This document shows, piece after piece, positions 3,875 through 63,607 of a stretch of 64,000 nucleotides of DNA. Source of the stretch: Escherichia coli (GTDB lineage: Bacteria > Pseudomonadota > Gammaproteobacteria > Enterobacterales > Enterobacteriaceae); the NCBI RefSeq assembly GCF_044324785.1, contig NZ_CP172127.1, one strand, 5' to 3'. Position 1 is the first letter of the stretch; the number at the start of each line of letters is the position of its first letter. The position numbers and the translations under genes were made by a program. The notes under the pieces were generated by a model. The model made no database searches, had not been told where the DNA came from, and saw only the letters and a list, made by a program, of their open reading frames with translations.

Positions 3875-4885
3875 ATGAGTATTTCTTTGAAAAATATTGA
3901 TTTTGCTAAAGGTCCTGTTGATTCCCTCCATCATGATTATTACTTATGGCGAGGGAAGAACATTGAGGATAAAAGACTTTTTCTCGTTTTCTCATCTCGG
4001 GGAGCAGGTCCTGGAGAATTTAGTTTTTTCAAAACTTTTGATGCGCTTAATGTAAATGTTTTGCATGTTACACCCTCTGATTTTTCATGGTACCAAAAAG
4101 GGTTAGTCGGTTTAGGGAGTGATTTGCCTTCTGCATTTAAAGCCCTATCTGACCGAATAGATAATTTCTGTATTTATCATAAAATAAAACAAATTATCTG
4201 TGTAGGGGCTTCCATGGGAGGATATGGTGCTTTAATTTATGGGGCTTTATCTAGTAGAAAAATAAAAACAACACTTATTCTTTTTGGCACCGAAACAATA
4301 TTAAAACTTCCTTATTCTAAAAGTTCTGAGAGTGAATTTGATATTCTCAAAAAATTTAAAGATGTAAGGTTTCTAGATTATTCTGATCTTGATGTGAATA
4401 TGATATTTGGTGAGTTTGATATTGTAGATACTTATTGTGCTTTATCGATGCGACATGATCGAAATTTTTCATTTTTTTCATGCACTAGCGCCTCACATGT
4501 TGTTCCGGAATACTTAAATAGACAAATTGGAATTGTTAATTTTTTTACAGACTTCTTATCGGGTGGAAGATCTTTTATTGGAAGAGGCCACATTGCTTCT
4601 GAGCTTTATCCTGAGGATATTTCTCCTCTTCTGTTCTCGAAACAATTTACTGAGGAATACAATAATGCCCTCCTCTGTTGCTTGAAAAAATATCCTTCAT
4701 TTGGGTTTGCATGGAATAGATTAGGCGTATATTTACACAATATAGGAGATCTGGCTGGGTCTTTAGCAGCATTAAAAAGAGCATTTTTCATCAACCCTGA
4801 TTATCCAAATACAATTGAGCATCTTAACTCGGTAAGAAATAAACTAAAAACTTTTAGTTTTTATGTATACTTGTGTGAGGAATGA
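3875..4885 (+). CDS. capsule region 2 protein, alpha/beta-hydrolase-like (GxSxG)
   Basis: ORF 3866-4885 starts at GTG; in-frame ATG at 3875 after GGTGGG; GASMGG nucleophile-elbow-like motif; low GC. Confidence 0.5.
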   Translation: MSISLKNIDFAKGPVDSLHHDYYLWRGKNIEDKRLFLVFSSRGAGPGEFSFFKTFDALNVNVLHVTPSDFSWYQKGLVGLGSDLPSAFKALSDRIDNFCIYHKIKQIICVGASMGGYGALIYGALSSRKIKTTLILFGTETILKLPYSKSSESEFDILKKFKDVRFLDYSDLDVNMIFGEFDIVDTYCALSMRHDRNFSFFSCTSASHVVPEYLNRQIGIVNFFTDFLSGGRSFIGRGHIASELYPEDISPLLFSKQFTEEYNNALLCCLKKYPSFGFAWNRLGVYLHNIGDLAGSLAALKRAFFINPDYPNTIEHLNSVRNKLKTFSFYVYLCEE

Positions 4886-26840: not shown

Positions 26841-29302
26841 CGCAATCCTTTTATTTCTGGCGTACGCTCTTTAAGGCATCCGGCTGAGAGGCTAATGATC
26901 ACTCCTCGCTCACAACGGACCTTCAGCTCAGCCGCTCCGGCCGCTTCATGCCATGAATGTACGCAGCCAGTCAGAATATTAAGGTGCGGATTTCAGTTCA
27001 CTTGTCAGCCCAGTGATACAGGACAGTAATGACCAACAATTTGGTATTGATACAACAAGTTGCGGCCCCGGTTCGTGGGGGAGATGAAACGACGGTAGCT
27101 GAAGTTACTGAAATGAAGAATTCAGAGAGACTGAATGATATGCCTCACCTTTAGTGAATAGTGTAAAAACGGGAGACTCTCACCCGAGATTATCCACTCA
27201 TGCTCAATGTATAATTTTCGTGCCCCTCACAGGTAAGAGCCGGATGCATTCGTTGTGTACGTTGCAGAATTGGTAACCGGGGACCCTGCAGTCTTTAACT
27301 CCGAGTCTTGTGCTGCTCATTTGCCACAAAATCCTGGTACGCCAGCTCAATCATTTCATTCAACAGTTTTTTTGGGGGGCACCACGACTTCGGGCAATAC
27401 TTTCAGGCTGTTTGTGGATTTTTCCGGACAGTTTCAGCGGAACGGAACCATCAGCACGTTCATCACGCCTTTTTTGTTGCTCCCGGGCACTTTTCAGTTC
27501 ATCCACAATATAGCTGCTCTTCTCGCATTTTTGCCGATTTTAAAAATGCGAACAAAACATCCGTACATGATGTACAGATTAAACTGCCAGGGACTGGTGT
27601 CAGAAAGCCTCCGGTTAGCCTGCTCTTTCCGGAATGTGCCGGTTATGAAAAACCGGAAATTCAGTCTCTGTTGTAAGATGTACCCTCTGATACTACGTTT
27701 TCGTTTTCTCTGTGTATTTAACTCACTGTATTTATTGTCTTTTTAAGCCTGACTGATATTCTCCGGTCATAGTGTGCCGGATAGACATCCCGTAACCTTC
27801 TCATTTTTATATAAAAATACCTGCACTGTCTTCAGCGCATCTGTCTCCTTTAAGTAAAAAATGTTTTCACGTATTGCTGTAAATTCATTTTAAATCAGTA
27901 TGTTATCCTGATATTGCTGTCTCCTGGTTTGATGCGTAATCGTTCTGCCTTTCTGGATGATTCTGGTGCTTCCGGGTGCATTCTCCTCTGCACATGCAAC
28001 AGTTCGTCATCGCCACGTGCCCAAAAAGCATATAAAAACGAATCGAATCTGATCGTTTTTTCAATCGTTTTTCACAGGAATTTCGTAGGGTGTTCTCCGC
28101 TATAGCCTCCATATTTGCTGTCTTTTTCTTCATAAATCGTATGCAATATAACCAGTCTGTCAAGACATCTTCCCTGCTGTTGAGGTGACGATCTCATTTC
28201 TGGTCTTTTCCGGGAGAGAGACGGTCAGATGAGCGAGCCGGATTTACTGCCAGAGGTACTCCCCGCGGCAGAAAATAGTGCTCCTGTTTCCGCAATCCGG
28301 GATCGGCAACGTCCCATGGTTAATGCCACTTGCAGCGTCAGGCACTGCAGGTTTACGTCGTGATCTGATTTCTTCTGCACTTATCCCGATCACGGAAGTT
28401 CCCCCTGCGCAGACATCGGTTCCTGCCGACATCTCACAATACCGCCAGGCTGTCATGCAGTAACACCCGCAATGCGGTCTGCGGTTTTAAGCGCACTCTC
28501 CTGTTTTCAGTGCACCGATAAGCGTTATAGAAAGTCTGGGGTGAGTTACTGAATGTCTGTTAAGTGGTGCCGTGGGTGGAGACTGCTTACTTTTCCACAG
28601 CAACTGCAGTCATTCAGGATGCTCAGGAGAGAATATGTCAACGCCACGAGCCGGGCCATTTTCATGCCAGCCAGTATATTTTCTACACTGATGCAGTCTG
28701 ATTTTCACCATTCCATCCTCACTGATTGTCGTGTTGTTTTGGGTCATCACCACAGCTTTCCGTTTCTCTTTTAATCGGTAACGCTCTCCTTTGATATTCA
28801 GCGTGGTTGAGTGATGCAGCAGTCAATCCAGGAGCGCTGTTGTCCGGCAACCACCATATCAACTTCTTCCCGGCGTGCCGGCGCTGGTATCCAGGCCGGG
28901 TTTCGAAGCGAAGCGTTCCTGACGGACTCATTGACATCCGGGCCGGATGTAGTCATGCAGCATGGAACGTCCGCCCGTATACACTGACGGCGTCCGGCCG
29001 TGTACAGAGATCGGTAAAATTCGTTACTACAACTGTTCCTGAATATCTGACGAAGAAACATTCAGCAATAACATCCGGCCGTGTACATCTCTTTTGCGGT
29101 GCAGGGAGCACTGTCGCCATGTACTTATTGTCACCAGGGTGAGGCATGTACCGCAGCATGCCAGCTCAGCAATGACAGGATGCCCTTAAGACATCCGTCA
29201 TGGCTCAGTATGATGACGACGAACACGCTCTGCAGGTGAGCATGCAGGGCCGGGGGTATCATCATTTCCGTATTTTGCCGCACCTTCCGGAAACAACCGG
29301 CA

Positions 29303-29920
29303 TCAGTTACGGTTACCGTCAACCGTTGTGCGGTATGCCAGGAGCACGTACTGATCCATCAGATCCGTCAGTGCTGCGTTCTGCTTCTGACGGTCGATGA
29401 TCCATTCCCCCAGCTCTTTTTCTGATTTCCGTTTCAGGTTCTCCGTCCAGTCGTCAAGGCTGTTTCCGGTCATTAAATCAAGCCAGCAAAGCCAGACCAG
29501 TTTGAGGCGCAACTCCGTGCCACCAAACTGACGGAAGAGGCTGATCAGTTTATTTGCCAGAGAACGCTGCCTCAGACGTTCACATTCAGACAGCAGAATC
29601 CCTTCCAGCATCGGATGATGAACCAGCAGATGTTCGCTGGTGCATAAGTTCACCACCAGATCATCATCCAGGGGCGGCGTGGCCCGTTTGTCAGAGCCAT
29701 AAATCAGCCGGTGCAGACTCCGGGGTACGATGGCAATCTTCGGTTTTTCACCATTGAATGACACCCACCCGGGCGTCAGATTATGGAAGTAGTGGATATT
29801 CGGATGACACACGCCCCAGGATACGGCGTGCCGGGTGAAGCCGGTCAGCCATTTCTGGTAGCTTTCGTGGAGCAGCTCGTAACGGGTCTGATACTGTGGT
29901 TTCATTTTCATATTCCTCAC
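29303..29920 (-). CDS. hypothetical protein downstream of alpA
   Basis: 205-aa ORF on the same strand, 79 bp after alpA; no recognisable motif. Confidence 0.5.
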   Translation of the reverse strand: MRNMKMKPQYQTRYELLHESYQKWLTGFTRHAVSWGVCHPNIHYFHNLTPGWVSFNGEKPKIAIVPRSLHRLIYGSDKRATPPLDDDLVVNLCTSEHLLVHHPMLEGILLSECERLRQRSLANKLISLFRQFGGTELRLKLVWLCWLDLMTGNSLDDWTENLKRKSEKELGEWIIDRQKQNAALTDLMDQYVLLAYRTTVDGNRN

Positions 29921-29998
29921 GGGGGATAACAGGCAGCAGAGTGCCGCCGGCAGGCCGGAGATTGCGTCTGCTGTGGGCGAAGGGCCAGTGGTTAAAAA

Positions 29999-30205
29999 TT
30001 ACGGACGGGACTGTGCAATACGCGCCTGCAGCCAGGCTTCCACTTCACTTTTCAGCCAGCGGGAGCTGCGGCCGAGTTTGATGGGAGCCGGAAAGGCCCC
30101 ATCCTTGATGAGCTTGTAAAACCACTTATCGGTCAGGCCGGTCAGCTGAGTGATAAACGTCATATCGACCATCTGGTCATCCATCAGCGAAACTGGGGTG
30201 GTCAT
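29999..30205 (-). CDS. alpA: AlpA-family phage/island transcriptional regulator
   Basis: 68 aa; FITQLTGLTDKWFYKLIKDGAFPAPIKLGRSSRWLKSEVEAWL is the AlpA/MerR-like excisionase-type HTH. Confidence 0.8.
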   Translation of the reverse strand: MTTPVSLMDDQMVDMTFITQLTGLTDKWFYKLIKDGAFPAPIKLGRSSRWLKSEVEAWLQARIAQSRP

Positions 30206-30588
30206 AAAAATCTTCTCCGGATGTTGTTAATCTCAGCCGGCGTTGATGATGAAAACAACGCACCACCTTCACCGGCATAACAACCGGGGAGAAACGTAAA
30301 AAATCAGTAGGGGAATATTCCTGCCAGGAGAGAAACTGTTGTGTACAGGCAATACAGGTTGTCTGTTTTGTCAGTGAAGCCGGTATAAACGGAAGATGAT
30401 TTTGTGTTGCCGGAATATGGGATGGCGTTTTGCCGTGACAGGATCAGTATTTTCAGTGATGATTATTACTGTGCAGGGGAGTACCGGAGATAAACCACGC
30501 CCTGTACCTGCCAGAGCGGAGGTTTGTATTGACTGAACGGAAGATAAAGCGAGGTAAACACTGTTGCGGTGAGCGGAGAAGACTGAGA

Positions 30589-31380
30589 TTATTCTCTGTA
30601 ATTACAAACAACAGTGATCTGATCCGGTTTTTTTACCGTTACGGGTTTCCGGGGATCAATTTTATAGACCGGGGTAATGACCACGCCGGAATTTATGGAG
30701 AAAAGCGGGATCCAGCAATAAACGTCCGGATATTTCTGTGTCTCCGGAATACCTTTTGTGCCAGAGGCCATCAGATCTTTAACGCTCACGAAAAATGACT
30801 TCCGCAGATCAAAAAAGTACTCGTTATATATCACATCCTTTGCCAGCAGGATGACTGCATTACCAACAGCCGATTTTACAGGTGTTTCATCAGGTGGATT
30901 ATCGTGATTGTATATTGTTCTTTCTATATAAATAAAACAGGCATATTTCGTCTTCTCCCCGGATAGTTGCATCTGGTATTCGCAAATGTCTTTGATATAC
31001 CGACTTTCAACCCTTCCAATCATCTTATCCCGGCGATAGTGTCTTTTATGTTTCAGCGCGTACAGAACACCATTTGAACTGTCAAACTCCAGGACACTTC
31101 TGGTGAAAAGTTTGTTTTCCCAGATCTCCAGACAATACTTCTCTGCACTGACGACATTGCGTTTGTGGGGAAGATTCCGTTGATACACTCCATTTAATAA
31201 GCGTGACTGCAGTTCGCCTGCAAGTTGATAGTAACAGTTAATGTCATTAAGGACAGGTGCTGTGGCGTTGAGTAATGTGTTGATTACCTTAGAGCGCGAA
31301 AGTTTGTGGGTATGACAGTACTCATCCACAATTCGCAGTGTCTCATCACTGGTCATATTGAAAGTTATACGTGTTGTCAT
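30589..31380 (-). CDS. hypothetical protein: N-terminal ribbon-helix-helix-like domain fused to an unknown ~200-aa domain
   Basis: 263 aa, low GC; N-terminus ITFNMTSDETLRIVDEYCHTHKLSRSKVINTLL resembles a CopG/Arc RHH; remainder has no recognisable motif. Confidence 0.5.
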   Translation of the reverse strand: MTTRITFNMTSDETLRIVDEYCHTHKLSRSKVINTLLNATAPVLNDINCYYQLAGELQSRLLNGVYQRNLPHKRNVVSAEKYCLEIWENKLFTRSVLEFDSSNGVLYALKHKRHYRRDKMIGRVESRYIKDICEYQMQLSGEKTKYACFIYIERTIYNHDNPPDETPVKSAVGNAVILLAKDVIYNEYFFDLRKSFFVSVKDLMASGTKGIPETQKYPDVYCWIPLFSINSGVVITPVYKIDPRKPVTVKKPDQITVVCNYRE

Positions 31381-31719
31381 GATGAAGTTTTCTGTTAATC
31401 ATACTGGTTGATATGCATAACATTTCATAAAAAATACTGTTAATTCATATAATTGATTTTTTGACTGGTTTTATCCTCGTGTGGTGGAAAGCAGTATTAC
31501 TGCCACTGTAGTCAGCATAAATCTATCACACAGAACCACCGAAAATGAAGCATTGCTCAGGGGGAAGCTGCCACTCGTATGAGTTCTCTGAACCATGATA
31601 ACCAGTATTTTTCGTTTTGGGTGATTTGTTTATCGTTACAGCTACATACAGTTCATGTACCATTAAAAAATAATAAAGGTTAATTAGTATTATTTATAGA
31701 AGTATGTTTATGTAATTCT

Positions 31720-31765
31720 ACCGTGTAAATGAACCCTGTAATTCTACCTTGTAAATACACCTTGT
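31720..31765. repeat. tandem direct repeats TGTAATTCTACC(G/T)TGTAAAT in a 1.4-kb non-coding region
   Basis: Two adjacent copies plus multiple dispersed (C)TGTAA motifs between 31700 and 31930. Confidence 0.4.
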
Positions 31766-32797
31766 AACCAAGTCCTGTAGAAGTCTGTCTCATAGAAGTA
31801 TCTGTGCAGTGATATTCTCTGTAGTAGTACTTGTAACTCTGTTCTTAACTCTCTCTTCAGTAATGTAGTCCCGCAACACCTGAATATAAATCTGTAATGT
31901 TCACACACTGACTGTAACGTGCTTTGTTAAGTAATGTCTGCTATTTTTTTTTCTGTTATTTTTCCTGTTGTTTTCTGTATTTTGTTGTATGGTGTAATAA
32001 CTATTCTGAACCCGTCATCACCTTTATAGCTAAGAGTATGACTTCGCCAGTGTTGATACTGTGGATAACGGTGATTAAGGAATTACTGTTAATGATCTGT
32101 TCCTGCAGCTCACCTGATGAGTTTTGGTAGTAATACGTAAAAGAGTATGCCTCATGTCATTAAAAAGTCTTCCGGAGTGTTGTTTAACCCTGTACCTCTG
32201 TTACTCATGTAGTACGTTGCGGAAAGCTACGTTAATTGTAATATCTGGTTATGGCGTTATGCCTTCAGTATTAAAAACATCTTTTACCGGAGAAACTGGG
32301 AAGTGGAAAGGCTTTCGGGATAACGTCAGGCCATTATGACGATATTACGTTAATCACAGTACAAGATAACGAGAGGGTAATGGAATTTTAAACCAGAGTA
32401 GTTCCACTGTTGTTCACTGGAAAAAGTGATTTCCCACGCGCGTTATAAGCTTACTCCAGAGGAGATGGAAGCCTTCAACTCTGCGGTCGATCACCGGCTG
32501 GCAGAACTGACCATGAACAAACTTTACGATCGTGTTCCCGCTTCAGTCTGGAAATATGTTACCTGATAAATGTTTCTGATGAAGTACAGTCGTCACAATG
32601 ACATCACTTCAGATATTATCTGCGCTGTGATTGACTGTCACGTATGCCGTTCTCTGTATGGTTCTGATACCCGGGTGTGGTCCCACTTTCTCTGTGGCGC
32701 CCGGGGAGTTGTGAACCTGCACGTCTTCGTGTGATAACGTTTTCTTCAAAAATTACGCCAGCGCTTCTTCCTGTGTTACAGAACACGAGGAAGAAAC

Positions 32798-33397
32798 ATG
32801 AAGACTTACAACACCAATCCCGGTTACGAAATGGATCCCCAGCTCCTGACACACTTTAACCAGCATCTGGATTCATTATTCGGGGTATATTCGAAACTGT
32901 TACCGTTCAGAATGGATTTTGCTTACCGAAAAAACACCCTCAGCTACAGATGTGCCTGCAGGTACGCCATGTGCGCGGAGATACTGCGACTGATTAACGA
33001 AGTGGGAGAGAAACTGGTCGGGTATGCCTGGGTAATGGAATATACGGAACGTAAAGGGCTTCACATTCATTTTGTGGGCTATCTGAACGGTCAGAGCCAC
33101 AGGAGTTCGTATCTGGTATCCAGATTGATGGGAGATATCTGGAGGCGGGTTACCGGGGGGGATGGTTACTACCACTGGTGCCGGTTTAATAAAAATTATC
33201 CGGTAAACATTAACCACGTCATTCACTATTCAGATCACAAAGCGGTGAATGCCTTACGCTATGCCATCAGCTACCTGGCCAAACGAGAACAGAAAGAATG
33301 TGGCATCATCCTGAAATGCAGCGGGCTTCCTGAAAAAAGTAATCGGGGTCGACCGCGACTGGGCAGCCCCCTGCCGGAGACTTATTCTCTGGTGTAA
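32798..33397 (+). CDS. inovirus Gp2-type / YagK-YfjJ family protein (HUH replication-initiator-like)
   Basis: 199 aa; HUH-like LHIHFVGY motif; SD GAGGA. Confidence 0.65.
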   Translation: MKTYNTNPGYEMDPQLLTHFNQHLDSLFGVYSKLLPFRMDFAYRKNTLSYRCACRYAMCAEILRLINEVGEKLVGYAWVMEYTERKGLHIHFVGYLNGQSHRSSYLVSRLMGDIWRRVTGGDGYYHWCRFNKNYPVNINHVIHYSDHKAVNALRYAISYLAKREQKECGIILKCSGLPEKSNRGRPRLGSPLPETYSLV

Positions 33398-33762
33398 GAC
33401 CCTGAACGACAACTACGGGCTGGCGCTAATTGTTACAGTCGGTTCCGGAGGCCACTTCAGGGACTCTGCGCATTTTTTACGACATGGCTATTCCGTATGA
33501 ACCATACGGAGATTTAACCATGGCACATTCTTTACCATTCCTTCCGGCAACCGATACAGCACATCCTCCGATGTCCATCCCTGCCTGCTGACAGTTTTTT
33601 ACGCCGGAGGGCCATTGTGTGACAACCACAGTGCTGTAACAGCAACCAGCCTGCTTTACCCAAACTCCAGTCCAGATTTTAACTGAACCGCCATTCACAC
33701 CCTGACCACACTGCCCGTACCGGGACAGCTGTTGCCTGCGTGTCGTCTGGCTGCTGAGGAAT

Positions 33763-34152
33763 ATGACGATGTACGCAAAATCCTTTATTGCATTTGATGG
33801 CAACGGGCGTCTGACGGGTGCCCGTACCGCACAGACTGCACCTTACGATCGCTACACTTGCCACCTTTGCGGCAGTGCGCTCAGATACCACCCGCAATAC
33901 GACACTGAGCGTCCCTGGTTTGAACACACTGACGACGGGCTGACGGAGCACGGTCAGCAGTGCCCTTATGTCAGACCGGAACGCAGGGAGATACAACTGA
34001 TTAAGCGTCTGCAGCAATTCGTACCGGATGCCTTACCCGTGGTGCGTAAAGCCAGCCGGCACTGCAGACAATGTCATCACGATTATTATGGGGAGCGGTA
34101 CTGCACGCACAGCCATACCGGGCACTTCAGTGAGGAGGGGGTGGCAGAATGA
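33763..34152 (+). CDS. small zinc-ribbon protein (paralog 1 of a tandem pair)
   Basis: 129 aa; CHLCGSAL...WFEH followed by a C-terminal CxxC/His cluster; stop overlaps next start (ATGA). Confidence 0.5.
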   Translation: MTMYAKSFIAFDGNGRLTGARTAQTAPYDRYTCHLCGSALRYHPQYDTERPWFEHTDDGLTEHGQQCPYVRPERREIQLIKRLQQFVPDALPVVRKASRHCRQCHHDYYGERYCTHSHTGHFSEEGVAE

Positions 34153-34574
34153 ACGGTATAAAAACGGGGCTGGGGATCACGCCGGGTGAACACATTATCA
34201 GTGCTGATTCTGCGCTCAGCAGAAATATCCGGCAGTGTTTCTGCCTTTCCTGTCATGGCCGGTTGATTTTGCAGACAGATGCTCAGGGGGCGTGGTTTGA
34301 GCACGATTTACATGTCCTGAGCGAGCAACAGAAGGCAGCCTGCGTGGTGCTGAATCCGGAAAAGTCCCACCCTTACATTGAGGATATGGAGATGTTTTTA
34401 TCGCCATTACCGGTCGTGCTGGAGTGGCATTGTGTGATGTGTGAGCAGTTTTTTCATGGGAAGAAATTCTGTGAGGCCTGTGGTACGGGGATTTATTGCA
34501 GAGCGGTATGTACGAAGTCTGTTTACAGCTACCAGCCAGACTTGTTTCAGGACTGCGGAGGTGCGAGTACTTAA
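34149..34574 (+). CDS. small zinc-ribbon protein (paralog 2 of a tandem pair)
   Basis: 141 aa; CLSCHGRL...WFEH and CVMC...CEAC motifs parallel the upstream gene. Confidence 0.5.
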   Translation: MNGIKTGLGITPGEHIISADSALSRNIRQCFCLSCHGRLILQTDAQGAWFEHDLHVLSEQQKAACVVLNPEKSHPYIEDMEMFLSPLPVVLEWHCVMCEQFFHGKKFCEACGTGIYCRAVCTKSVYSYQPDLFQDCGGAST

Positions 34575-35045
34575 TCCGAAATGCCCGACCTGCTCAGGGC
34601 GTTCAGAAGTATCGGAACCTGCATTTTATCTGGTGTTTCGCACCCACCCCGTTCGTGACACAAAGGCGCGACACCGGATATCCGCAGTCCTGCTTACCTG
34701 AATAAAACCCGGGGTATTGATTGTGTACTGTGGTGCGAAATCGCACCGTGATCGCGGATTCGCCGAATCCGCACTGTGGTGTCAACCAACCATACGCGAG
34801 AGTCCTCTCCGTATTTATCAGTGCCTCAGGACGATTTCTGCATAGTTAATCCAGGGGGCTGCATTGTTTATTTCCCTGCTAATGGACGTGACATCCAGGA
34901 TATTCATGATCCTGATTTCCCTGAGCAGTATCAGCGCTTATTGGAGCGTCTGGATTATCAGACGATGCCCGGTACTAAAGCATCAGGCCAGCGTAACTCT
35001 GGCTACAGCGGTTTTTGACCTGTTGTAACTGTAAGGTGATTTATT

Positions 35046-35612
35046 ATGTATACAGAATCAAATGTTAAGCTTTCCTGTAACGCCCTCTGGCAAAAGTGTG
35101 TCCTTGCAACTCTGTATCGGGCTGCAGCCACACATCCTGAAATTAAATTATTACAATTTAAATTAATACCAGGGCAGGGTATTAATAAGGCCATTCCCTC
35201 TCTGATGGCTGATTTTACTGGTGAACTGCATAGACTCATTTCTGAATATTTGCAGTGTAAGCGACGTAAAGAGCAATCTGTTGAGCCCACCCCTTTATAT
35301 TATCTCTGGAGTAGGGAAGCTGTGGCTAACGATACCACTCCTTATCTTATGGTGCTGCTACTTAATAACGATGTCTGGTGTAAGAGTCGTGAGGTGGTGG
35401 TTCTCAGAAATCTGATTGAGCAGGCGTGGGGAAAAGTATTGGGTGAAGATAACTCCATTACACATCTGGTTGTGTATCCTGAAGTGCTGTCGTTGGTATT
35501 TGATGCAGCTAACACATACAACGCTGAGCCTGCTGTACTGGAACAGACGGCCCGGGCTTACATTGAATCACATGGTACCATTGAACGTCATCTTGGGTGT
35601 AGTGACTTTTAA
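35046..35612 (+). CDS. YagK-like (inovirus Gp2-type) protein with degenerate HUH motif
   Basis: 188 aa; YLWSRE...PYLMVLLLNNDVWC aligns with the HYHVILLLNKDTWC motif of the 57669 paralog but lacks both His. Confidence 0.6.
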   Translation: MYTESNVKLSCNALWQKCVLATLYRAAATHPEIKLLQFKLIPGQGINKAIPSLMADFTGELHRLISEYLQCKRRKEQSVEPTPLYYLWSREAVANDTTPYLMVLLLNNDVWCKSREVVVLRNLIEQAWGKVLGEDNSITHLVVYPEVLSLVFDAANTYNAEPAVLEQTARAYIESHGTIERHLGCSDF

Positions 35613-35957
35613 CGTCAGGTGATGCATAAGGGCCTTTCGCTGAGAGGCCCTGTTTACACAATTAAATAAATCGAGCCCGACCAACAATTTTGATGTTAAC
35701 AGCAGGATTATTGAGGGGCAATCAATGTGTTCTTCGGTAGCGATTACGGTAGTGAACGGACCTGCTGTCTGAATGGCATCGATCCGCAAGCGTATCGGCG
35801 CCATATTCTGAGCGTACTACTGAAATGGCTAATGGCAGTAAAGAGAGACTTTACGTATATTTGCATAAAGCAGGATTTTACGACTAGTCAACATTCTTTA
35901 TAATTCTTCAGGTTCAGAGTATCTGACATATAGGGTTATGTATTGGGGAGACATTTA

Positions 35958-36659
35958 ATGTTTGGCCATCTGTTACGATACTTTAGTTTCTGTAAAAAAG
36001 ATTTATTAGTATTTCATCCTGAATCTGATTACTCAGATAATTTACATAAAGCCTTCTCTTTTACAAAAAGGCTAGGATTTAATGAAGAATGGAATGGGGT
36101 CACAAAAAACAAAGAATATGATTATCAGGATGTATTCAGTCATGTCTGTCTGCAGTCTGGTGTGACAGACTTTTCCGCTTCAGCAGGACAATGCTTAAAG
36201 TGGAGTCATTATTTTCAGCCATATTTTGAGAATATCCTTGAATGTCGGGTATGGGTTACCGTTGGACAACTCTGGAAACAGGAACGATTTATTTACAATC
36301 CGTCAGTTGCGGATTTTCAGCGCTGGTCTGAAAAAGGGATTCAGCCTGAAGATTTTAGACATCACTCGGGGTTTAACTTTCATGCGTGGTTGACGACGGA
36401 AAATGGTGTGATTGTGGATGTTTCCTTTATGAGTACGTTATCGCGGCGATTACCTGAACACCTGAGTGAAGTCAGTGGAAGTGTGATTATTGGCACGCCA
36501 GAGACGGTTCTTCCTGAGTATAAATATGTTCCCATGATTGTCGGTCAGAGGATTGTTGAGAAAATAGAAAAACGCTCTTTCATTGGTTTTCTGGCGCACG
36601 ACGATATTGATTTATATACAGTACCTGCAATCTTGGTTCCGGTATGGAAAGAATGTTAA
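35958..36659 (+). CDS. hypothetical orphan cargo protein
   Basis: Track ORF starts at TTG 35943; ATG at 35958 preceded by GGGGAG; 233 aa; low GC; no recognisable motif. Confidence 0.5.
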   Translation: MFGHLLRYFSFCKKDLLVFHPESDYSDNLHKAFSFTKRLGFNEEWNGVTKNKEYDYQDVFSHVCLQSGVTDFSASAGQCLKWSHYFQPYFENILECRVWVTVGQLWKQERFIYNPSVADFQRWSEKGIQPEDFRHHSGFNFHAWLTTENGVIVDVSFMSTLSRRLPEHLSEVSGSVIIGTPETVLPEYKYVPMIVGQRIVEKIEKRSFIGFLAHDDIDLYTVPAILVPVWKEC

Positions 36660-44328: not shown

Positions 44329-44347
44329 TGGTGCCCGGACTCGGAAT
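44329..44347. repeat. 19-bp direct repeat of tRNA-Phe 3' end (att site)
   Basis: TGGTGCCCGGACTCGGAAT is the reverse complement of the tRNA-Phe 3' terminus; sequence diverges from the tRNA beyond 19 nt. Confidence 0.6.
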
Positions 44348-44594
44348 GAAACTGGTTGTATAACAAGTTGTTTTATATTGATTGTTTTGTGTTTGTTATT
44401 TTTGAGGCCACCAATGAGGCCCCCATGTGCAATTCGAATTCTTTTGACGCTATAATCCCTCTTTCTTGTGGTTTGTTGTAATCATTTTGTCTGGTTCGAT
44501 ATGCTGAATCGCGGAATCGAAGTGACAACAAAATACAGAGATTTATAAAATACCTGGCTACCTGTGTTAGGGAGCGTTAACGCACAGATTTTGT

Positions 44595-48120: not shown

Positions 48121-48597
48121 TTAAAGCAGACCGTGTTCCGCAAAGGAGAAAACCTGGCTGCCACCGATTATCAGATGGTCCGGTACCCGGATATCCACCA
48201 GGGCCAGTGCCTGTACCAGACGCTCGGTGATAAGGCGGTCTGCCTTGCTGGGGATGACTTCACCGGACGGGTGATTGTGCGCCAGCACCACGGCAGCGGC
48301 ATTGTGGTACAGGGCGCGTTTAATCACCTCCCGGGGATGGACTTCTGTGCGGTTGATGGTGCCAGTGAAGAGGGTTTCACCGGTAATCAGCTGATTCTGG
48401 TTATTCAGATACAGCACCCGGAATTCTTCACGCTCCAGTCCCGCCATGTTCAGAATCAGCCATTCCCGTGCCGCATGCGTGGAGGTGAAGGCCACGCCGG
48501 GTTCATGAAGATGGCGGTCCAGGGCTTTCAGGGCCCGCTGAATGAGGCTGCGCTCGCCGGGTGTCATCTCTCCGGGCAGAAAGGAAAGCTGCTGCAT
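48121..48597 (-). CDS. RadC-like JAB-domain protein, copy 2
   Basis: Paralog of 16677-17153; start trimmed to MQQLSF. Confidence 0.8.
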   Translation of the reverse strand: MQQLSFLPGEMTPGERSLIQRALKALDRHLHEPGVAFTSTHAAREWLILNMAGLEREEFRVLYLNNQNQLITGETLFTGTINRTEVHPREVIKRALYHNAAAVVLAHNHPSGEVIPSKADRLITERLVQALALVDIRVPDHLIIGGSQVFSFAEHGLL

Positions 48598-48612
48598 TGT
48601 CCCTGCCTCCAT

Positions 48613-49098
48613 TCAGTCGATGATGCGCATAATGGCGCTGCATTCCGGATGCTGCAGGGCATAATCCCGCAGCCGGTAATAATGAACCGTCATGGCATAA
48701 TTCTCTGTACGACAGGCGTGATGGCTGTACGCCATCAGACAGGCGGCAATGCCGGCGGCTTCCGGGCTCATTTCAGCGCGGTTACCGTTCATGACGTTAA
48801 ACAGCACCCATGTTTCGTCATCATCGTCATCCGGTTCAGGTGCCATAAATGCGCCACCGTTGTTCAGGGTGTACAGATTCCAGATGCCCCCGCAGTAGTC
48901 TTCGCACAGACGGTCCATCCAGCCGAAGACACGGGGCTCCAGGGTCACCCACTGTGGAATGAGGCCAAAATGCTGCGGCCAGAAGCTGATGCGCTGTTCA
49001 TCAGGGACGGGAGTGGCAACCAGTTGAGACTGGTTATTCCCTGATGCAGTAGTTACGGAAACAGAAGGTGTGGTGGAGCTATGCGAAAAGGTTGTCAT
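48613..49098 (-). CDS. antirestriction protein (KlcA/ArdB-like), copy 2
   Basis: 161 aa paralog. Confidence 0.7.
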   Translation of the reverse strand: MTTFSHSSTTPSVSVTTASGNNQSQLVATPVPDEQRISFWPQHFGLIPQWVTLEPRVFGWMDRLCEDYCGGIWNLYTLNNGGAFMAPEPDDDDDETWVLFNVMNGNRAEMSPEAAGIAACLMAYSHHACRTENYAMTVHYYRLRDYALQHPECSAIMRIID

Positions 49099-49189
49099 GA
49101 GATGATTCCTTATAAAAAGTAAATGAATGGAAGAATGCCTGGGGACTGGTACAGACGTGAGTCAGGGCTGCACTTTCAGGGAAACAGCA

Positions 49190-50008
49190 TCAGCGCATGC
49201 TCTCCAGCAGCGTTTCTGCCATCACCCACAACGCCCGGTTGAGCTTAATGTCGGTATCGATGCTGTGAATGGCCCGGGTATGGATACGTTTTCCTCTGGC
49301 ACTGCGACCGGAAATCCCGCCTTTCAGCATATTTTCCTGGATGGTCTGATAAGCACTCCACAGGTCCTTACCGTAATCCTCCCGGCGTCGTGGCGTCAGA
49401 ATGTCGGTAGTGGTGACGGGCTGATGTTCATCACCATAACGGTAAGTCAGCGCCGCCTGTGCCAGCGCCTGGCGTGCCGGTGGCGGCAGGACCAGCGACT
49501 GCATGGCATCACGCTTTTCCTCAATCCGGTCAAACACGCCCACCACTTCGTAAGCACCTTCAATCACCCTGTCCACCACGTTTCCCCGGTGGGGCACCCG
49601 GACTTCTCCCAGCGACTGACCGCAGACCAAGCCATTGGTGCAGATGGCACGAAAATATCCGGGTAACATCTGATAGCTGGATGAACCGTCATGGGAGTTG
49701 AGCAGAATAATTTCAGGCACATGCTGACCGGTTATCTGTCCGGCCCGCCGCAGACGCAGCATATGTTTGGTATATTCCCGGCGGCTCTGGTCGCGCACAC
49801 GGGTCTGGCAGGCGAAGAACGGCTGAAAGCCTTCCCGCTGCAGATTTTCCAGGACGGTGATGGTGGGAATGTACGCATACCGTTCACTGCGGGAGGTGTG
49901 CCGGTCTTCTCCAAAAATACTCGGGACGTGGTACATCAGTTCTTCGCGTGTCAGTGGGCGCTCCCGACGGATCTGATTTACATGACCAAAACGACTGGCT
50001 AATTGCAT
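49190..50008 (-). CDS. DUF932-like protein (YfjQ/YafZ family), copy 2
   Basis: 272 aa paralog. Confidence 0.65.
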   Translation of the reverse strand: MQLASRFGHVNQIRRERPLTREELMYHVPSIFGEDRHTSRSERYAYIPTITVLENLQREGFQPFFACQTRVRDQSRREYTKHMLRLRRAGQITGQHVPEIILLNSHDGSSSYQMLPGYFRAICTNGLVCGQSLGEVRVPHRGNVVDRVIEGAYEVVGVFDRIEEKRDAMQSLVLPPPARQALAQAALTYRYGDEHQPVTTTDILTPRRREDYGKDLWSAYQTIQENMLKGGISGRSARGKRIHTRAIHSIDTDIKLNRALWVMAETLLESMR

Positions 50009-50097
50009 ACTTTGCTCCTTATGAATGAATTAGCGGTATAAACGAAAAGGCCGCGTCTCCCGGAGAAGACGCGGCCTGATGGATGAAATGAAGACGT

Positions 50098-50331
50098 TTA
50101 TTGCCTGAGAATTCCCTCACTGGCGAGATACGAATTTAGCTGTTTTCCGGCATCAGGTTCAAAATTCCAGCACCGCCAGCGTAGCTGCCCTTCGGCATTG
50201 CGGATAACCAGCCGGAAATGCGTTCCCTGGTCATCTTCAATAAGCACATTGCGGTAAGCTGTTGTGACGGCAACCGCCTGTTCGCGTGAGAAAGGGCCTT
50301 CGGGCAATAAAACAGGGTGGCAGTCCGACAT
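50098..50331 (-). CDS. DUF905-like small protein, copy 2
   Basis: 77 aa paralog. Confidence 0.55.
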
Positions 50332-51161: not shown

Positions 51162-51842
51162 TCACAGGTTAAAGGTGTTGATAAGTTTATGGATGAAAGA
51201 GAAATGTGGCAGGGCGGAGATAAAACGCTCTTCAGCGACCAGACTGTGGATGTGGCCTCTCCGTTCAAACCGTTCTGATGTCAGGCTGACTGATTTGATA
51301 TCTGCCAGAGGAAAGACCTGCAGTTTTCCCTTCTGTAACGCGATCAGATACCAGCTACCGCTGTAATAAATGAGCCGGCAGGGCTCCAGTGACGGATACC
51401 ATCGCTCAGTCATCAGAGAGATGTGGATACACTGTCTTATTGCCAGGATGAGTTGCGAGAAACACTCGGGGAACGTTGCAGTGATATCCGGCGCCGGTAG
51501 CCAGATAAGGCAGGGAGAGGGCTCCTGGTTGTCGGTAAGACAGGTTATCAGTCGTCCGTTCCGGAGCGGAAGTATCCGTGCGATCCCGGTATTCTGTATA
51601 AAAGAAAGCATTTCAGGGATCGCACCCGGGCTGCTCTGTCGTCTGAGGCTGTACCTGCCATTTCTGTACTCTAAATCCAGGTGAACCAGACGCTGATGAA
51701 AATCGCGCTGTAAAGTACGTTCTGTAACGCCAAATTCATCTGACAGTGTTTTTAGTGACAGAGATTCTCCGGCCATCAGTCGGCTGATAATGAGTGATAA
51801 GCGAACCGCCAGGCGATCATGCCGGGAACGATTATCAGACAT
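51162..51842 (-). CDS. YfjR-like transcriptional regulator (HTH plus WYL-like domain)
   Basis: N-terminal HTH SLKTLSDEFGVTERTLQRDF; conserved position next to the GTPase. Confidence 0.6.
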   Translation of the reverse strand: MSDNRSRHDRLAVRLSLIISRLMAGESLSLKTLSDEFGVTERTLQRDFHQRLVHLDLEYRNGRYSLRRQSSPGAIPEMLSFIQNTGIARILPLRNGRLITCLTDNQEPSPCLIWLPAPDITATFPECFSQLILAIRQCIHISLMTERWYPSLEPCRLIYYSGSWYLIALQKGKLQVFPLADIKSVSLTSERFERRGHIHSLVAEERFISALPHFSFIHKLINTFNL

Positions 51843-52044
51843 AGATGTGCACTCCGTAAGAAAACATCTTTTATTTCATGATGTTATTATGCATCATGAT
51901 GTTGAAAGGATGTGTCGCATCCGGATAATCAGGAATAAAATGCAGCAGAAAAAATATTCTTTTAATTATCTGATTTTTAAGCATGATTTCATAAAAAGAA
52001 GAATGCTCGTTAATGCAGCGACACATCCTGTCGGCGTGAGTGTG

Positions 52045-52929
52045 TCAGAACAGACGCTCCCACAGTGTGATCAGCAGGTGGATAATGCGGTCCCGGGCTT
52101 TACGCAGAAGCTGTAACATCCAGGCCGGAAAACTGAAACGGGCAACGGCGACGTCAAAACTTTTCCCGATGGTTTCACCAAAAGTCTGTTGTGCGTGTTT
52201 CTGGGCCTGTTCAGAGCGGTTTTCTCCCCGGATATGTGAATACACCGCGCTGGTTGCCTGTGGTGGCAGTGCGTGGATCATCAGCGACACAAACGCCGGA
52301 AGGTTCCAGCCGACAGGTGCAGCAACGGAGAGTACCGGAAATGATGAAGGGAACAGGGTTGCCACCCGGGCTGTCACCGTCGCCAGTGAGAGCGACTGCT
52401 GACGGGACGGGCATTTTTCTGTGGCATTCCATTCTTCAGCAGGAAACACGCGATCGGCATGGCTGAGAACAAACAGAAAACGCGAGGGATCTGCGCCTTC
52501 ATTCAGTAAAAACTGATGCATGGCAATATCAGCAGCATACGCACGTTCATCAGCCCGCAGGATCCAGATAATCAGATCCAGTTCCGGTAGCAGCTGACGA
52601 TAAAGTGTCCGGTATTCCTGATCATGCTGCGGTGTTTCACCAATGCCGGGCAGATCGACCAGCGTCATTCTGCGTTCACCGAACTGCAGGGTAAGACGAT
52701 GAGCCTGGCGGGTGCAGCCGTTCAGAGGATGTGTGGCGCAGATACGGGACTGAAAAATGGCATTACACAGACTGCTTTTGCCTGTTCCGGATTTACCCAT
52801 AATGCCAATCACGGGCTCGTAATGAATAACACTGTGGAGATGTTCAAGGATTTTCTGGCGAATTTCTTCAGGAAGAAACGTCAGATGTGATTTCACTTGT
52901 GCGGAGAGGGAAGAATGGCTGAATGACAT
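52045..52929 (-). CDS. YeeP/YfjP-family GTPase, second copy
   Basis: P-loop GIMGKSGTGKSSL; 294 aa. Confidence 0.75.
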   Translation of the reverse strand: MSFSHSSLSAQVKSHLTFLPEEIRQKILEHLHSVIHYEPVIGIMGKSGTGKSSLCNAIFQSRICATHPLNGCTRQAHRLTLQFGERRMTLVDLPGIGETPQHDQEYRTLYRQLLPELDLIIWILRADERAYAADIAMHQFLLNEGADPSRFLFVLSHADRVFPAEEWNATEKCPSRQQSLSLATVTARVATLFPSSFPVLSVAAPVGWNLPAFVSLMIHALPPQATSAVYSHIRGENRSEQAQKHAQQTFGETIGKSFDVAVARFSFPAWMLQLLRKARDRIIHLLITLWERLF

Positions 52930-63373: not shown

Positions 63374-63607
63374 ATGTTGACCACAATAAGCCACGACAGC
63401 GTGTTGCTGCGTGCCGACGATCCCCTGATCGACATGAACTACATCACCAGTTTCACCGGCATGACCGATAAATGGTTTTACAGGCTGATCAGTGAAGGTC
63501 ATTTCCCTAAACCCATCAAACTGGGGCGCAGCAGCCGCTGGTACAAAAGTGAAGTGGAGCAGTGGATGCAGCAGCGAATTGAGGAATCACGAGGAGCAGC
63601 AGCATGA
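63374..63607 (+). CDS. alpA: AlpA-family transcriptional regulator, second copy
   Basis: ITSFTGMTDKWFYRLISEGHFPKPIKLGRSSRWYKSEVEQW; track ORF trimmed to MLTTISH after GAGGA. Confidence 0.8.
   Translation: MLTTISHDSVLLRADDPLIDMNYITSFTGMTDKWFYRLISEGHFPKPIKLGRSSRWYKSEVEQWMQQRIEESRGAAA

Follow-up and report, generated by a model that had tools for sequence, protein, structure and literature searches.

The closest described counterparts of this locus are the hha paralogues hha2 and hha3 of EAEC 042 (EC042_4516 and EC042_4796), which lie in flu-yeeR islands under H-NS/Hha repression (Prieto et al. 2016, PMC4864382; PMC6480617). The region studied here, a divergent intergenic gap within a 64-kb stretch of Escherichia coli DNA (the window, meaning the whole stretch analyzed), holds part of a gene of the same Pfam family, likewise within a CP4-44-like island of the flu/Ag43-yeeR type between IS elements; the complement of the published hha2 reverse primer is an exact match to L004, one of the alleles we compared (PMC4864382; PMC6480617). 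The window copy matches neither published primer pair exactly and therefore represents a third allele lineage; unlike Hha2 and Hha3, it cannot yield a 70-aa protein, because it carries a stop at codon 4 and deletions of 14 and 12 bp. Compared with the core proteins Hha, YmoA, and Cnu(YdgT) (1JW2, 2MW2, 4ICG, 2K5S, and 2JQT), the surviving part is 59% identical over Hha residues 23-71 (29 of 49 residues for K-12 Hha), conserved core included, but it lacks the N-terminal ~22 residues and is probably not expressed. Core hha lies at the tomB-hha locus, whereas the window remnant is island-borne.

Two other kinds of known element resemble the repeats in the gap. In pMV158, the dso/cop region combines the RHH repressor CopG, the HUH initiator RepB, and an 11-bp direct-repeat "bind" locus. 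The window array likewise consists of direct repeats beside an AT-rich block, between putative RHH-type and HUH-like Rep-type genes and with a DnaA box near, but it has a 13-bp period, is dispensable in one allele (L018), and is missing in distant relatives; no nick-site hairpin was identified next to it. With VNTR or minisatellite (MLVA-type) loci, the array shares head-to-tail units, copy-number variation among strains, 26-bp dimers, and a nested microsatellite; it differs in having a 5-nt core that is unusually invariant and all its units on one strand, and these traits would leave room for a binding function. The hairpin before yagK is similar to translational hairpins that sequester a Shine-Dalgarno (SD) sequence in that it, too, hides the SD in its 3' arm, and its function is putative.

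The gap spans exactly the space between the starts of the divergent YagM-family and YagK/YfjJ-type genes (Table 1), as the earlier note had proposed. The same note described a 1.4-kb noncoding region, which needs amending because ~190 bp of the gap is an hha pseudogene. We consider it probable that the gap is the control region of a decaying CP4-44-like island, containing a broken hha tail and a minisatellite and organized in four layers. The first, ~85 bp beside the YagM-family gene, would be the conserved promoter/leader of that gene. The second would be ~800 bp of fast-evolving AT-rich spacer, without coding or RNA-structure signal, in which the minisatellite would grow and shrink by slipped-strand or unequal recombination. 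The third would be a horizontally spread "hha cassette": in sister islands it is predicted to encode a 70-aa co-repressor of the Hha2/Hha3 type working with the nucleoid protein H-NS, and in the window the hha copy would be dead, its surviving 3' reading frame being the small ORF noticed earlier. The fourth would be a 230-bp leader ending in a hairpin that may sequester the yagK ribosome-binding site. Elsewhere, the island in the window contains Ag43, a YeeP-like GTPase, antirestriction and JAB/RadC-like genes, and an integrase. The observation is real but ordinary: a broken, already annotated hha-family gene together with a strain-variable minisatellite.

Table 1. Features of the divergent gap and its flanking genes (window coordinates)
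Feature	Position	Strand	Evidence or remarks
YagM-family gene, 263 aa	30589-31380	-	Start at 31380
Divergent gap	31381-32797		ORF list; RefSeq annotation at the TUM9803 locus (99.9% identical)
Candidate YagM-proximal promoter/leader block	31381-31465	-	blastn versus L011/L013, alignment; 90-97% column conservation
AT-rich block CATTAAAAAATAATAAAGGTTAATTAGTATTATTTATAGA, directly upstream of the array	31661-31700		95-100% conserved in 12 E. coli alleles; 31681-31700 invariant
13-bp minisatellite	31696-31803	+	TRF, repeat search, motif statistics, 12-allele unit dissection
Dispersed same-strand TGTAA (31832, 31893, 31913, 31993), irregular spacing	31832-31997	+	Motif count; mostly conserved among alleles
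T-rich indel-prone tract, TTTTTCTGTTA-like 11-12-bp repeats, poly-T of variable length	31941-32020	+	TRF, alignments
Perfect DnaA-box consensus TTATCCACA	32060-32068	-	Only perfect match in the 64-kb window; no cluster
Upstream part of the "hha cassette", common to other island types (L003/L004)	32300-32379	+	Alignment
5'-degraded hha paralogue (hha2/hha3 type, by homology)	32380-32566	+	Alignment to intact alleles, Pfam, NCBIfam
PGAP CDS WP_072146520.1, 49 aa, "Hha/YmoA family", CTG start	32417-32566	+	RefSeq
Small ORF, GTG start, 46 codons	32426-32566	+	ORF list
Hairpin CTTCTTCCTGTGTT-ACAG-AACACGAGGAAGAA	32765-32795	+	3' arm contains the yagK SD GAGGA (32786-32790), 3 nt before ATG
YagK/YfjJ "inovirus Gp2-type" gene, 199 aa	32798-33397	+	Start at 32798

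The short GTG-initiated ORF exists, and its translation is the peptide quoted in the earlier note, but it runs from 32426 to 32566 (46 codons plus stop) rather than from 32424 to 32561. Rather than a new, unverified small gene, it is what survives of the 3' part of an hha-family gene (Pfam HHA, 81 bits), the start region having been destroyed. Nor is it unannotated, since PGAP already places an Hha/YmoA family CDS there in RefSeq, entered as a CDS and not as a pseudogene. The match of the remnant to Pfam HHA (PF05321) scores 81.4 bits against a cutoff of 25 (E 5.7e-23) and spans profile positions 11-57 of 57. The full-length domain of ~67-72 aa, including its N-terminal segment, is not present, and the NCBIfam Hha subfamily model gives 82.4 bits, under its 90-bit full-length cutoff. 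The intact allele has 1JW2, 4ICG, 2K5S, and 2JQT as PDB relatives; in the intact relatives and the solved structures, the alignment begins at residue ~5-7. Residue D48 of Hha is important for binding the N-terminal domain of H-NS, and the equivalent Asp is kept in the AVDHR of the remnant. Judged by homology, then, the small ORF corresponds to the last 46-49 codons of an hha paralogue, of the hha2/hha3 type, carried on an island. What looked like a new small ORF is the end of a damaged copy of a gene whose paralogues are published and whose remnant RefSeq has already named.

Alignment to intact alleles locates the lesions. The hha ATG lies at 32380, behind the original SD sequence GAGAGGG (32371-32377), and is followed by a TAA stop (G>T) at codon 4 (32389-32391), by the 14-bp deletion after 32398, and by the 12-bp deletion after 32414; the last 49 codons remain intact, ending in the TGA at 32564-32566. 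The stop and the two deletions remove the part that aligns to Hha residues 1-22. Translation from the original SD and ATG would now end after 3 codons, and the original start codon and ribosome-binding site are no longer in frame with the Hha domain. An intact 70-aa gene (MEVKTKEDWLYQFRRCSSRETLEKV...) occupies the same position in EC1515, M9682-C1, and 214-4, and the intact alleles at the locus (WP_000453333.1 and WP_000453335.1, both 70 aa) are 2-3 residues off the remnant in the last 49. The hha locus has IS3 insertions in L006 and L017 and internal deletions in L005, L016, and L010; the IS3 insertions and larger deletions in other alleles indicate that hha has been lost repeatedly. Such repeated loss by different lesions adds modestly to what is known of how H-NS co-regulators turn over in islands.

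Could the truncated Hha nonetheless be a functional mini-protein of 46-49 aa, made from the GTG at 32426 or the CTG at 32417? Keeping the part that aligns to Hha residues 24-72, it might act as a modified or dominant-negative partner of H-NS. The open frame is identical in the window, L001, L007-L009, and Nissle 1917, which carries the same remnant allele, and several of the alleles that share it have diverged elsewhere; a second lineage, L003, likewise has the 14-bp deletion and an open 49-codon frame. PGAP lists the remnant as a CDS, and the AVDHRLAEL motif is retained along with the D48 equivalent. Translation signals and codon changes argue the other way. Reading from the sequence, we found no SD before CTG 32417 and only GGA, a weak one, before GTG 32426, and the N-terminal ~22 residues that are lost occur in every solved family member. 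Intact alleles differ from one another by 8 synonymous and 0-1 nonsynonymous codons, whereas a comparison of the window allele with its nearest intact counterpart shows 0 synonymous and 2 nonsynonymous codon differences. The short frame thus has neither its own start with a ribosome-binding site nor a sign of purifying selection, and the further independent knockouts (IS3, internal deletions) point to a gene being lost, not remodeled. We regard a functional mini-Hha as very improbable; the remnant is presumably not made in useful amounts, and the 49-aa PGAP CDS is, from its sequence, most likely a pseudogene fragment. Where hha2/hha3 serve as virulence markers, WP_072146520.1 should be left out of the tally of functional Hha copies.

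The tandem TGTAA units reported earlier are present (TGTAATTCTACCGTGTAAAT at 31711-31730 and TGTAATTCTACCTTGTAAAT at 31737-31756). The accompanying claim of many dispersed CTGTAA motifs stands for the TGTAA core, which does recur, but not for CTGTAA itself, found in the region only 3 times on the plus strand and 2 on the minus. The array consists of five TGTAA-N4-ACC-N units (31711-31775) and then a degenerate TGTAG unit (31776-31788), bracketed by ATAGAAGTAT direct repeats at 31696-31705 and 31792-31801. TRF returned a period of 13 (3.7 copies) and a period of 26 (2.2 copies, score 86), and a repeat search found four 26-nt copies spaced 13 nt apart. TGTAA starts at 31711, 31724, 31737, 31750, 31763, 31832, 31893, 31913, 31993, and 32237. 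Between 31700 and 32000, the TGTAA-densest 300-bp stretch in the window, it occurs 9 times on the plus strand and 0 times on the minus, against an expectation of 0.53 and a maximum of 4 in 2000 shuffles. A CTGTAA cluster at 51333-52111 was set aside as lying within coding sequence.

Across 12 alleles (the window and 11 others), copy number ranged from 0 to about 8 units, so that head-to-tail units and copy-number polymorphism among strains, the marks of a VNTR or minisatellite, are both present. L008 and L009 are one unit apart, and L019 has a (CTCTAC)n expansion nested in the array. In L018, the sequence between the ATAGAAGTAT repeats is cleanly absent while yagM, alpA, and hha are intact; its Gp2-type gene is truncated beside an IS3 remnant. 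The array is strictly single-stranded in orientation. Over 56 units, TGTAA is nearly invariant: of the 13 positions in the unit, these five adjacent ones vary least, and variation falls in the next four bases. By our own combinatorial estimate, contiguous least-variable columns would arise in ~1% of random placements, with the units delimited partly by that very motif. Such a contiguous core would look like the pattern expected of a protein-recognition core. In addition, the array is a ready-made polymorphic marker.

These features raise the alternative that the units are iterons. They would serve either as an operator for the putative RHH N terminus of the YagM-family protein or as a rolling-circle "bind" locus for the HUH-like YagK/Gp2 protein, with the conserved AT block as unwinding element and the DnaA box as host-factor site. 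At least three same-orientation repeats with a conserved core beside an AT-rich segment are indeed found (5-6 units, all on the plus strand), with a 17-fold enrichment of TGTAA in a single orientation, a conserved TGTAA/ACC core around a variable 4-nt spacer, an adjoining AT block that is 95-100% conserved, and a perfect DnaA box. The architecture is analogous to that of pMV158 dso, and YagK has sub-threshold REP_ORF2-G2P and YagK_YfjJ_C matches and an HIHF motif. At the corresponding position, another island type has a short repeat of its own, AAACACATG, whose copy number likewise varies by one unit; this hints at a recurring functional architecture. The repeat type changes with the YagM/YagK1 block, not with AlpA (93% identical between island types) or YagN (94% identical), although simple physical linkage also explains this co-variation.

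Several observations weigh against iterons. The array is not retained wherever the cognate protein gene is: L018 lacks it despite intact yagM, alpA, and hha, and so do the Citrobacter and Pectobacterium YagM-YagK pairs, whose gap is only ~390 bp and is without hha. Copy number is unconstrained, the internal microsatellite of L019 is tolerated, the 13-bp period is not helically phased, and units diverge between alleles about as much as the flanking spacer does. The block near yagM conserved across genera (GTTATGCA/TATGATTAACA) is a likelier operator. For the neighboring RHH, AlpA, or HUH proteins, which the earlier note put forward as possible binders of the repeats, the indirect evidence likewise goes mostly against a required site; the types of AlpA and YagN do not follow the repeat type. 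The RHH fold of YagM is itself putative: both this and the HUH assignment of YagK fall below family thresholds, the sole profile match of the YagM-family protein being sub-threshold (aCcr1, E 0.0025), and its AlphaFold model is poor (mean pLDDT 43.7) and unusable for fold comparison. A literature search on YfjJ, YagK, and YagM yielded nothing on function, full-text searches with the repeat sequences gave only irrelevant matches, and none of the viral contigs scanned had an exact match to a pattern of four TGTAA-N4-ACC units in phase. The DnaA box is conserved in most alleles, mutated in L005, and 270 bp from the array; we treat this single box as a lead only. We consider the iteron interpretation unlikely, and improbable the more specific idea that the array, AT block, and DnaA box form the binding locus or origin of an uncharacterized CP4-44-type replication/regulation module, which could pair a YagM-family (RHH-like) protein with a YagK/YfjJ HUH-like initiator and have its own repeat type in each island lineage. 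Most likely the array is a by-product rather than a required site; its loss in only ~1/40 of sampled alleles counts against this view.

We give very little credence to the minisatellite as a contingency (phase-variation) element, switching the yagM-alpA operon or an hha-yagK transcript through the number or spacing of promoters. Copy number does differ between strains, and read on the minus strand each 26-bp dimer forms a promoter-like hexamer pair, ATTACA-N16-TAGAAT, with four such matches in the array; the region holds 10 promoter-like sites in all, versus 5.2 ± 2.1 expected. However, ~330 bp separate the array from the start of yagM, a gene with a conserved proximal block of its own, and ~670 bp separate it from the hha ATG. 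Nearly identical strains agree in copy number, L008 and L009 differing by the single unit mentioned above, which suggests slow change, not rapid switching.

Around the array, GC content is 33-40% over 31350-32400, and by analogy with the EAEC islands this AT-rich spacer may be a target of H-NS/Hha silencing. The spacer is 83-89% identical to other alleles and has many indels whose length is not a multiple of 3; at third codon positions, identity is 94-95% for yagM and 87-90% for yagK. The spacer diverges faster than synonymous sites and, on these alignments, appears to behave as nonconstrained DNA. Its length polymorphism is widespread among 751 carrier genomes, with variation seen across 40 sampled genomes, in none of which does it contain an annotated feature. 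Conservation in the gap is lowest (0.52-0.69) in the tract at 31941-32020, which is largely deleted in L002, L017, L018, and L020. Nine local ORFs of 34-78 aa had no real Pfam match. No sequence homologous to the ~1-kb spacer was found outside E. coli; by blastn, an 851-bp core matched no phage and only 3 plasmid records, all from E. coli, two of which cover at least 99% of the query, one of these two being a 1-Mb record that may be chromosomal.

It is barely credible that the ~1-kb spacer is a structured noncoding RNA or long regulatory leader. The best promoter-like site in the region (TTCATA-N18-TATAAT, plus strand, 31424-31453, 10/12 matches) points into the spacer, toward hha, and no terminator-like site interrupts it. 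Nevertheless, an Rfam search of 28000-36500 at E of ≤1 gave as its sole match a chance CRISPR-DR13 (28679-28708) outside the gap, and fold z-scores of the spacer on both strands ran from -2 to +3, unremarkable values in what is a rough screen using crude neighbor-preserving swap shuffles. Frequent indels, 11-17% divergence between alleles, and the lack of homologues outside E. coli also speak against it. Apart from the yagK hairpin, neither an Rfam match nor a significant fold was found.

At the yagM end, homology to the YagM-YagK loci of Citrobacter and Pectobacterium was detectable in 31381-31465 (GTTATGCA...TATGATTAACA in common) and nowhere else in the gap; this block includes a near-palindrome, TGATATGCATAACA, at 31409-31422. 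A search of genome contigs with the YagM protein found a single locus, on an E. coli-like contig in a "Collinsella" MAG. The only part with a second copy elsewhere in the window is alpA (75% identical, 63426-63581).

Downstream of hha, a 54-codon ORF (32570-32734) was rejected as a gene: its substitutions relative to L002 show no codon-position bias, and it is deleted in L005. The small zinc-ribbon gene that lies between hha and the Gp2-type gene in L003/L004 had no counterpart in the window by tblastn. The hairpin at the yagK end folds with -19.3 kcal/mol (z of -3.8; 0 of 200 shuffles as stable) and would limit yagK translation. It is kept in all E. coli alleles compared, and SD-sequestering hairpins of unrelated sequence precede the Gp2-type genes of L003/L004, L011, and L013.

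The gap between yagM and yagK has exactly the coordinates reported for it earlier, 31381-32797, and together with its surroundings matches the E. coli TUM9803 chromosome at 99.9 to 100% identity; the RefSeq annotation of that chromosome supplied the local gene order (table). The earlier note read this gap as non-coding with a possible new small ORF. The GTG-initiated ORF is present and encodes the peptide quoted; it is not new, however, but a known, annotated, and most likely dead remnant of an hha2/hha3-type gene. The open frame matches Pfam HHA (81 bits, E = 5.7e-23) over profile positions 11 to 57 only, and its product is 59% identical to residues 23 to 71 of K-12 Hha. Intact 213-nt hha genes, whose product is a 70-residue protein or a one-residue variant of it, occupy the same position between the same neighbors in strains EC1515, M9682-C1, and 214-4. 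Alignment to these alleles shows that the window keeps the original ATG and its GAGAGGG Shine-Dalgarno sequence, that a G>T change made codon 4 a TAA, and that 14 bases were lost after 32398 and 12 after 32414. A Shine-Dalgarno sequence is absent before the CTG from which PGAP calls the remaining frame, and only GGA precedes the GTG.

Comparison of alleles argues that hha at this locus is undergoing loss, not remodelling. IS3 interrupts the gene at two different positions in same-locus alleles (L006 and L017), and larger internal deletions shorten it in alleles L005 and L016 and in the L010 contig. Within the final 49 codons, intact alleles are separated from one another by 8 synonymous and 0 to 1 nonsynonymous codon differences, whereas the corresponding counts between the window and the intact allele closest to it are 0 and 2; these numbers are small, but they point toward relaxed constraint. 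The hha2/hha3 family is already published: in E. coli 042, hha2 and hha3 lie within flu-yeeR regions gained by horizontal transfer, and repression of these regions is relieved in hha and hns mutants (PMC4864382, PMC6480617). The reverse primer published for hha2, taken as its complement, is an exact match to the allele of L004, which, with L003, represents another island type. Among 5,426 complete E. coli genomes, 2,229 contain the hha segment of our query and 639 contain the whole gap; the truncated allele of the window is also that of Nissle 1917.

Features of the yagM-yagK locus, its island, and comparison loci (window coordinates unless a locus is named)
Feature	Position	Strand	Source or remark
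YagN-like gene	29303-29920	minus	RefSeq annotation, TUM9803
AlpA	29999-30205	minus	RefSeq annotation, TUM9803
YagM-family protein	30589-31380	minus	RefSeq annotation, TUM9803
Near-palindrome	31409-31422		within yagM-proximal block
Best promoter-like site	31424-31453	plus	promoter scan
Perfect DnaA box	32060-32068	minus	consensus TTATCCACA
Original hha ATG	32380		alignment to intact alleles
hha codon 4, TAA	32389-32391		alignment to intact alleles
Open hha frame	32402-32563		Pfam HHA match
CTG start of remaining hha frame	32417		PGAP call
GTG ORF	32426-32566		hha remnant
49-aa "Hha/YmoA family nucleoid-associated regulatory protein"	between YagM-family and YagK/YfjJ genes		RefSeq annotation, TUM9803
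Hairpin before yagK	32765-32795		31 nt
YagK/YfjJ-domain ("inovirus-type Gp2") protein	32798-33397	plus	RefSeq annotation, TUM9803
Two DUF7828/zinc-ribbon proteins	after YagK/YfjJ gene		RefSeq annotation, TUM9803
Second YagK/YfjJ protein	after DUF7828/zinc-ribbon genes		RefSeq annotation, TUM9803
Second JAB/antirestriction/DUF932 block	48532-50311		91% identical
Second alpA-like sequence	63426-63581	opposite	75% identical
Shine-Dalgarno-sequestering hairpin, L003	~3930-3960		other island type
Shine-Dalgarno-sequestering hairpin, L004	~3890-3920		other island type
Shine-Dalgarno-sequestering hairpin, L011	~3620-3650	minus	Citrobacter
Shine-Dalgarno-sequestering hairpin, L013	~3640-3670	minus	Pectobacterium

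The tandem units described previously are indeed there: TRF reports periods of 13 and 26 (score 86), and a repeat search finds four 26-nt copies spaced 13 nt apart. The description of many dispersed CTGTAA motifs is overstated, since the gap holds only three on the plus strand and two on the minus strand; the real core is therefore TGTAA. Between 31700 and 32000 there are nine copies of TGTAA, all on the plus strand (0.53 expected; shuffle maximum 4, n = 2000), and nowhere else in the window does a 300-bp segment approach this density. Window-wide, CTGTAA is over-represented (52 versus 27 ± 5.5; 0 of 100 dinucleotide-preserving shuffles reach 52), with most copies falling within coding sequence.

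Judged by its variation, the array behaves as a minisatellite. Taking the segment bounded by two fixed anchors in each of 12 alleles, we counted full 13-bp units of the form TGTAA-N4-ACC-N; the degenerate TGTAG/TGCAG unit that closes the array and a small number of 8- to 12-bp partials are additional to these counts. The window has five such units, and its array is a 26-bp dimer duplicated in the pattern A-B-A-B'. There are three units each in L002 (plus an 8-bp partial unit), L005, L017, and L020, four in L016 (plus two 12-bp units), seven each in L007 (plus one 12-bp unit) and L009, and eight each in L006 and L008. L018 has none: the sequence is cleanly absent between flanking ATAGAAGTAT direct repeats, with yagM, alpA, and hha intact. 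In L019 (E. coli FEX669), a (CTCTAC)n microsatellite of ~8 to 9 copies has expanded within one TGTAATTCTACC unit, about 350 to 420 nt into the yagM-hha spacer. An 851-bp query matched lengths of 724 to 893 bp over 40 evenly sampled carrier genomes. The repeats are thus a 13-bp minisatellite that varies in copy number and lies in a rapidly evolving, AT-rich spacer of the island.

That the array serves as a protein-binding site seems improbable to us. The five least variable unit positions are the contiguous TGTAA, with variation concentrated in the next four bases, as a binding site might require, but orthologous units have diverged about as far as the surrounding spacer and the 13-bp period provides no helical phasing. 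The array is confined to one strand, adjoins a 40-bp AT-rich block that is 95 to 100% conserved, and shares the gap with the sole perfect DnaA box of the 64-kb window; nevertheless, L018 does without it, as do the Citrobacter and Pectobacterium loci, which share the divergent YagM-YagK pair across a gap of only ~390 bp that lacks hha. A different short repeat, AAACACATG, lies at the analogous place in the L003/L004 island type and is one unit apart between the two strains, which could speak for a function. However, the two island types have almost identical AlpA (93%) and YagN-like (94%) proteins, so any neighbor binding the array would be YagM or a YagK1-type protein, and linkage explains equally well the covariation of repeat type with YagM/YagK1 type. 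The only sequence common to distant relatives is instead a block of ~85 bp beside yagM (GTTATGCA...TATGATTAACA), which includes a near-palindrome and is a better candidate operator than the array, for an autoregulating YagM. The L003/L004 type has the order alpA, spacer, hha, without yagM; its direct-repeat cluster (AAACACATG/AAATACATGAGATC; L004 2584-2625 and the L003 equivalent) directly follows an AT-rich run and differs by one 9-bp unit between the two. The DnaA box, about 270 bp from the array in the window, is conserved across most alleles, but L005 has a mutated version.

The spacer is 83 to 89% identical to other alleles and shows numerous indels whose length is not a multiple of three, whereas third codon positions are 94 to 95% identical in yagM and 87 to 90% in yagK; hence there is no detectable constraint on the spacer as a whole. 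GC content is 33 to 40% over 31350-32400. None of the annotations of the 40 sampled carrier genomes places a feature in the spacer, its ORFs have no family matches, Rfam gives no match, and fold energies are ordinary. A promoter scan returned 10 promoter-like sites versus 5.2 ± 2.1 expected, four of them contributed by the minus strand of the array; no terminator-like site was found in the gap. By analogy with what is reported for genes of such islands in 042, we infer that H-NS/Hha may bind the AT-rich spacer.

Of the small features within the gap, the most interesting, yet a well-known kind of device, is the hairpin formed by the 31 nt before the yagK start (81-nt context, −19.3 kcal/mol, z = −3.8), whose 3' arm contains the yagK Shine-Dalgarno sequence. 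Every E. coli allele retains this hairpin, even L005, whose upstream sequence differs. Hairpins of the same architecture and unrelated sequence precede Gp2-type genes in L003/L004, Citrobacter, and Pectobacterium, and this recurrence suggests conserved translational control of HUH-like YagK/Gp2-type proteins. The device recurs in four lineages on unrelated stems, such as CCTTTGT...ACAAAGG in Citrobacter and TCCGTATG...CATACGGA in L003/L004. The YagK protein has a HIHF motif and matches REP_ORF2-G2P and YagK_YfjJ_C, both just under threshold. AlpA is a clear Phage_AlpA member. For the YagM-family protein, the one indication of an RHH nature is a sub-threshold aCcr1 match (residues 6 to 33, E = 0.0025); a low-confidence model (pLDDT 43.7) predicts a beta-alpha-alpha order.

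The wider island contains Ag43, YeeP-like GTPase, DUF932, antirestriction, and JAB-domain genes, a tyrosine integrase, and many IS remnants, a content that identifies it as a decayed CP4-44-like flu-yeeR island. Such islands are mosaic. The YagN-like protein of the window shares 94% identity with its counterpart in the L004-type island (L004 1320-1922) and only 36% with that of L002 (962-1534), despite which L002 and the window have the yagM-spacer-yagK block in common; AlpA is 93 to 97% identical across all these islands. Identity to TUM9803 stops at 44350 (~44331-44350), within a 78-nt tRNA-Ser of the PGAP annotation of TUM9803, beside the integrase; neither ARAGORN nor Rfam found a tRNA in the window. 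Because of this end point and the second JAB/antirestriction/DUF932 block downstream, two related islands seem to lie in tandem in the window strain, meeting at a tRNA-fragment junction. The second alpA-like sequence, near the right end, is probably part of the second island. No long ORF is present in 28000-29300, which separates the MFS transporter gene from the YagN-like gene, and the TUM9803 counterpart has fragments only, namely a hypothetical gene with a frameshift and 135 nt of an "AAA family ATPase". A YfjI/DUF3987 gene adjoins the YagN-like gene in sister islands L006 and L016, and 28000-29300 is probably a decayed primase-helicase-like gene.
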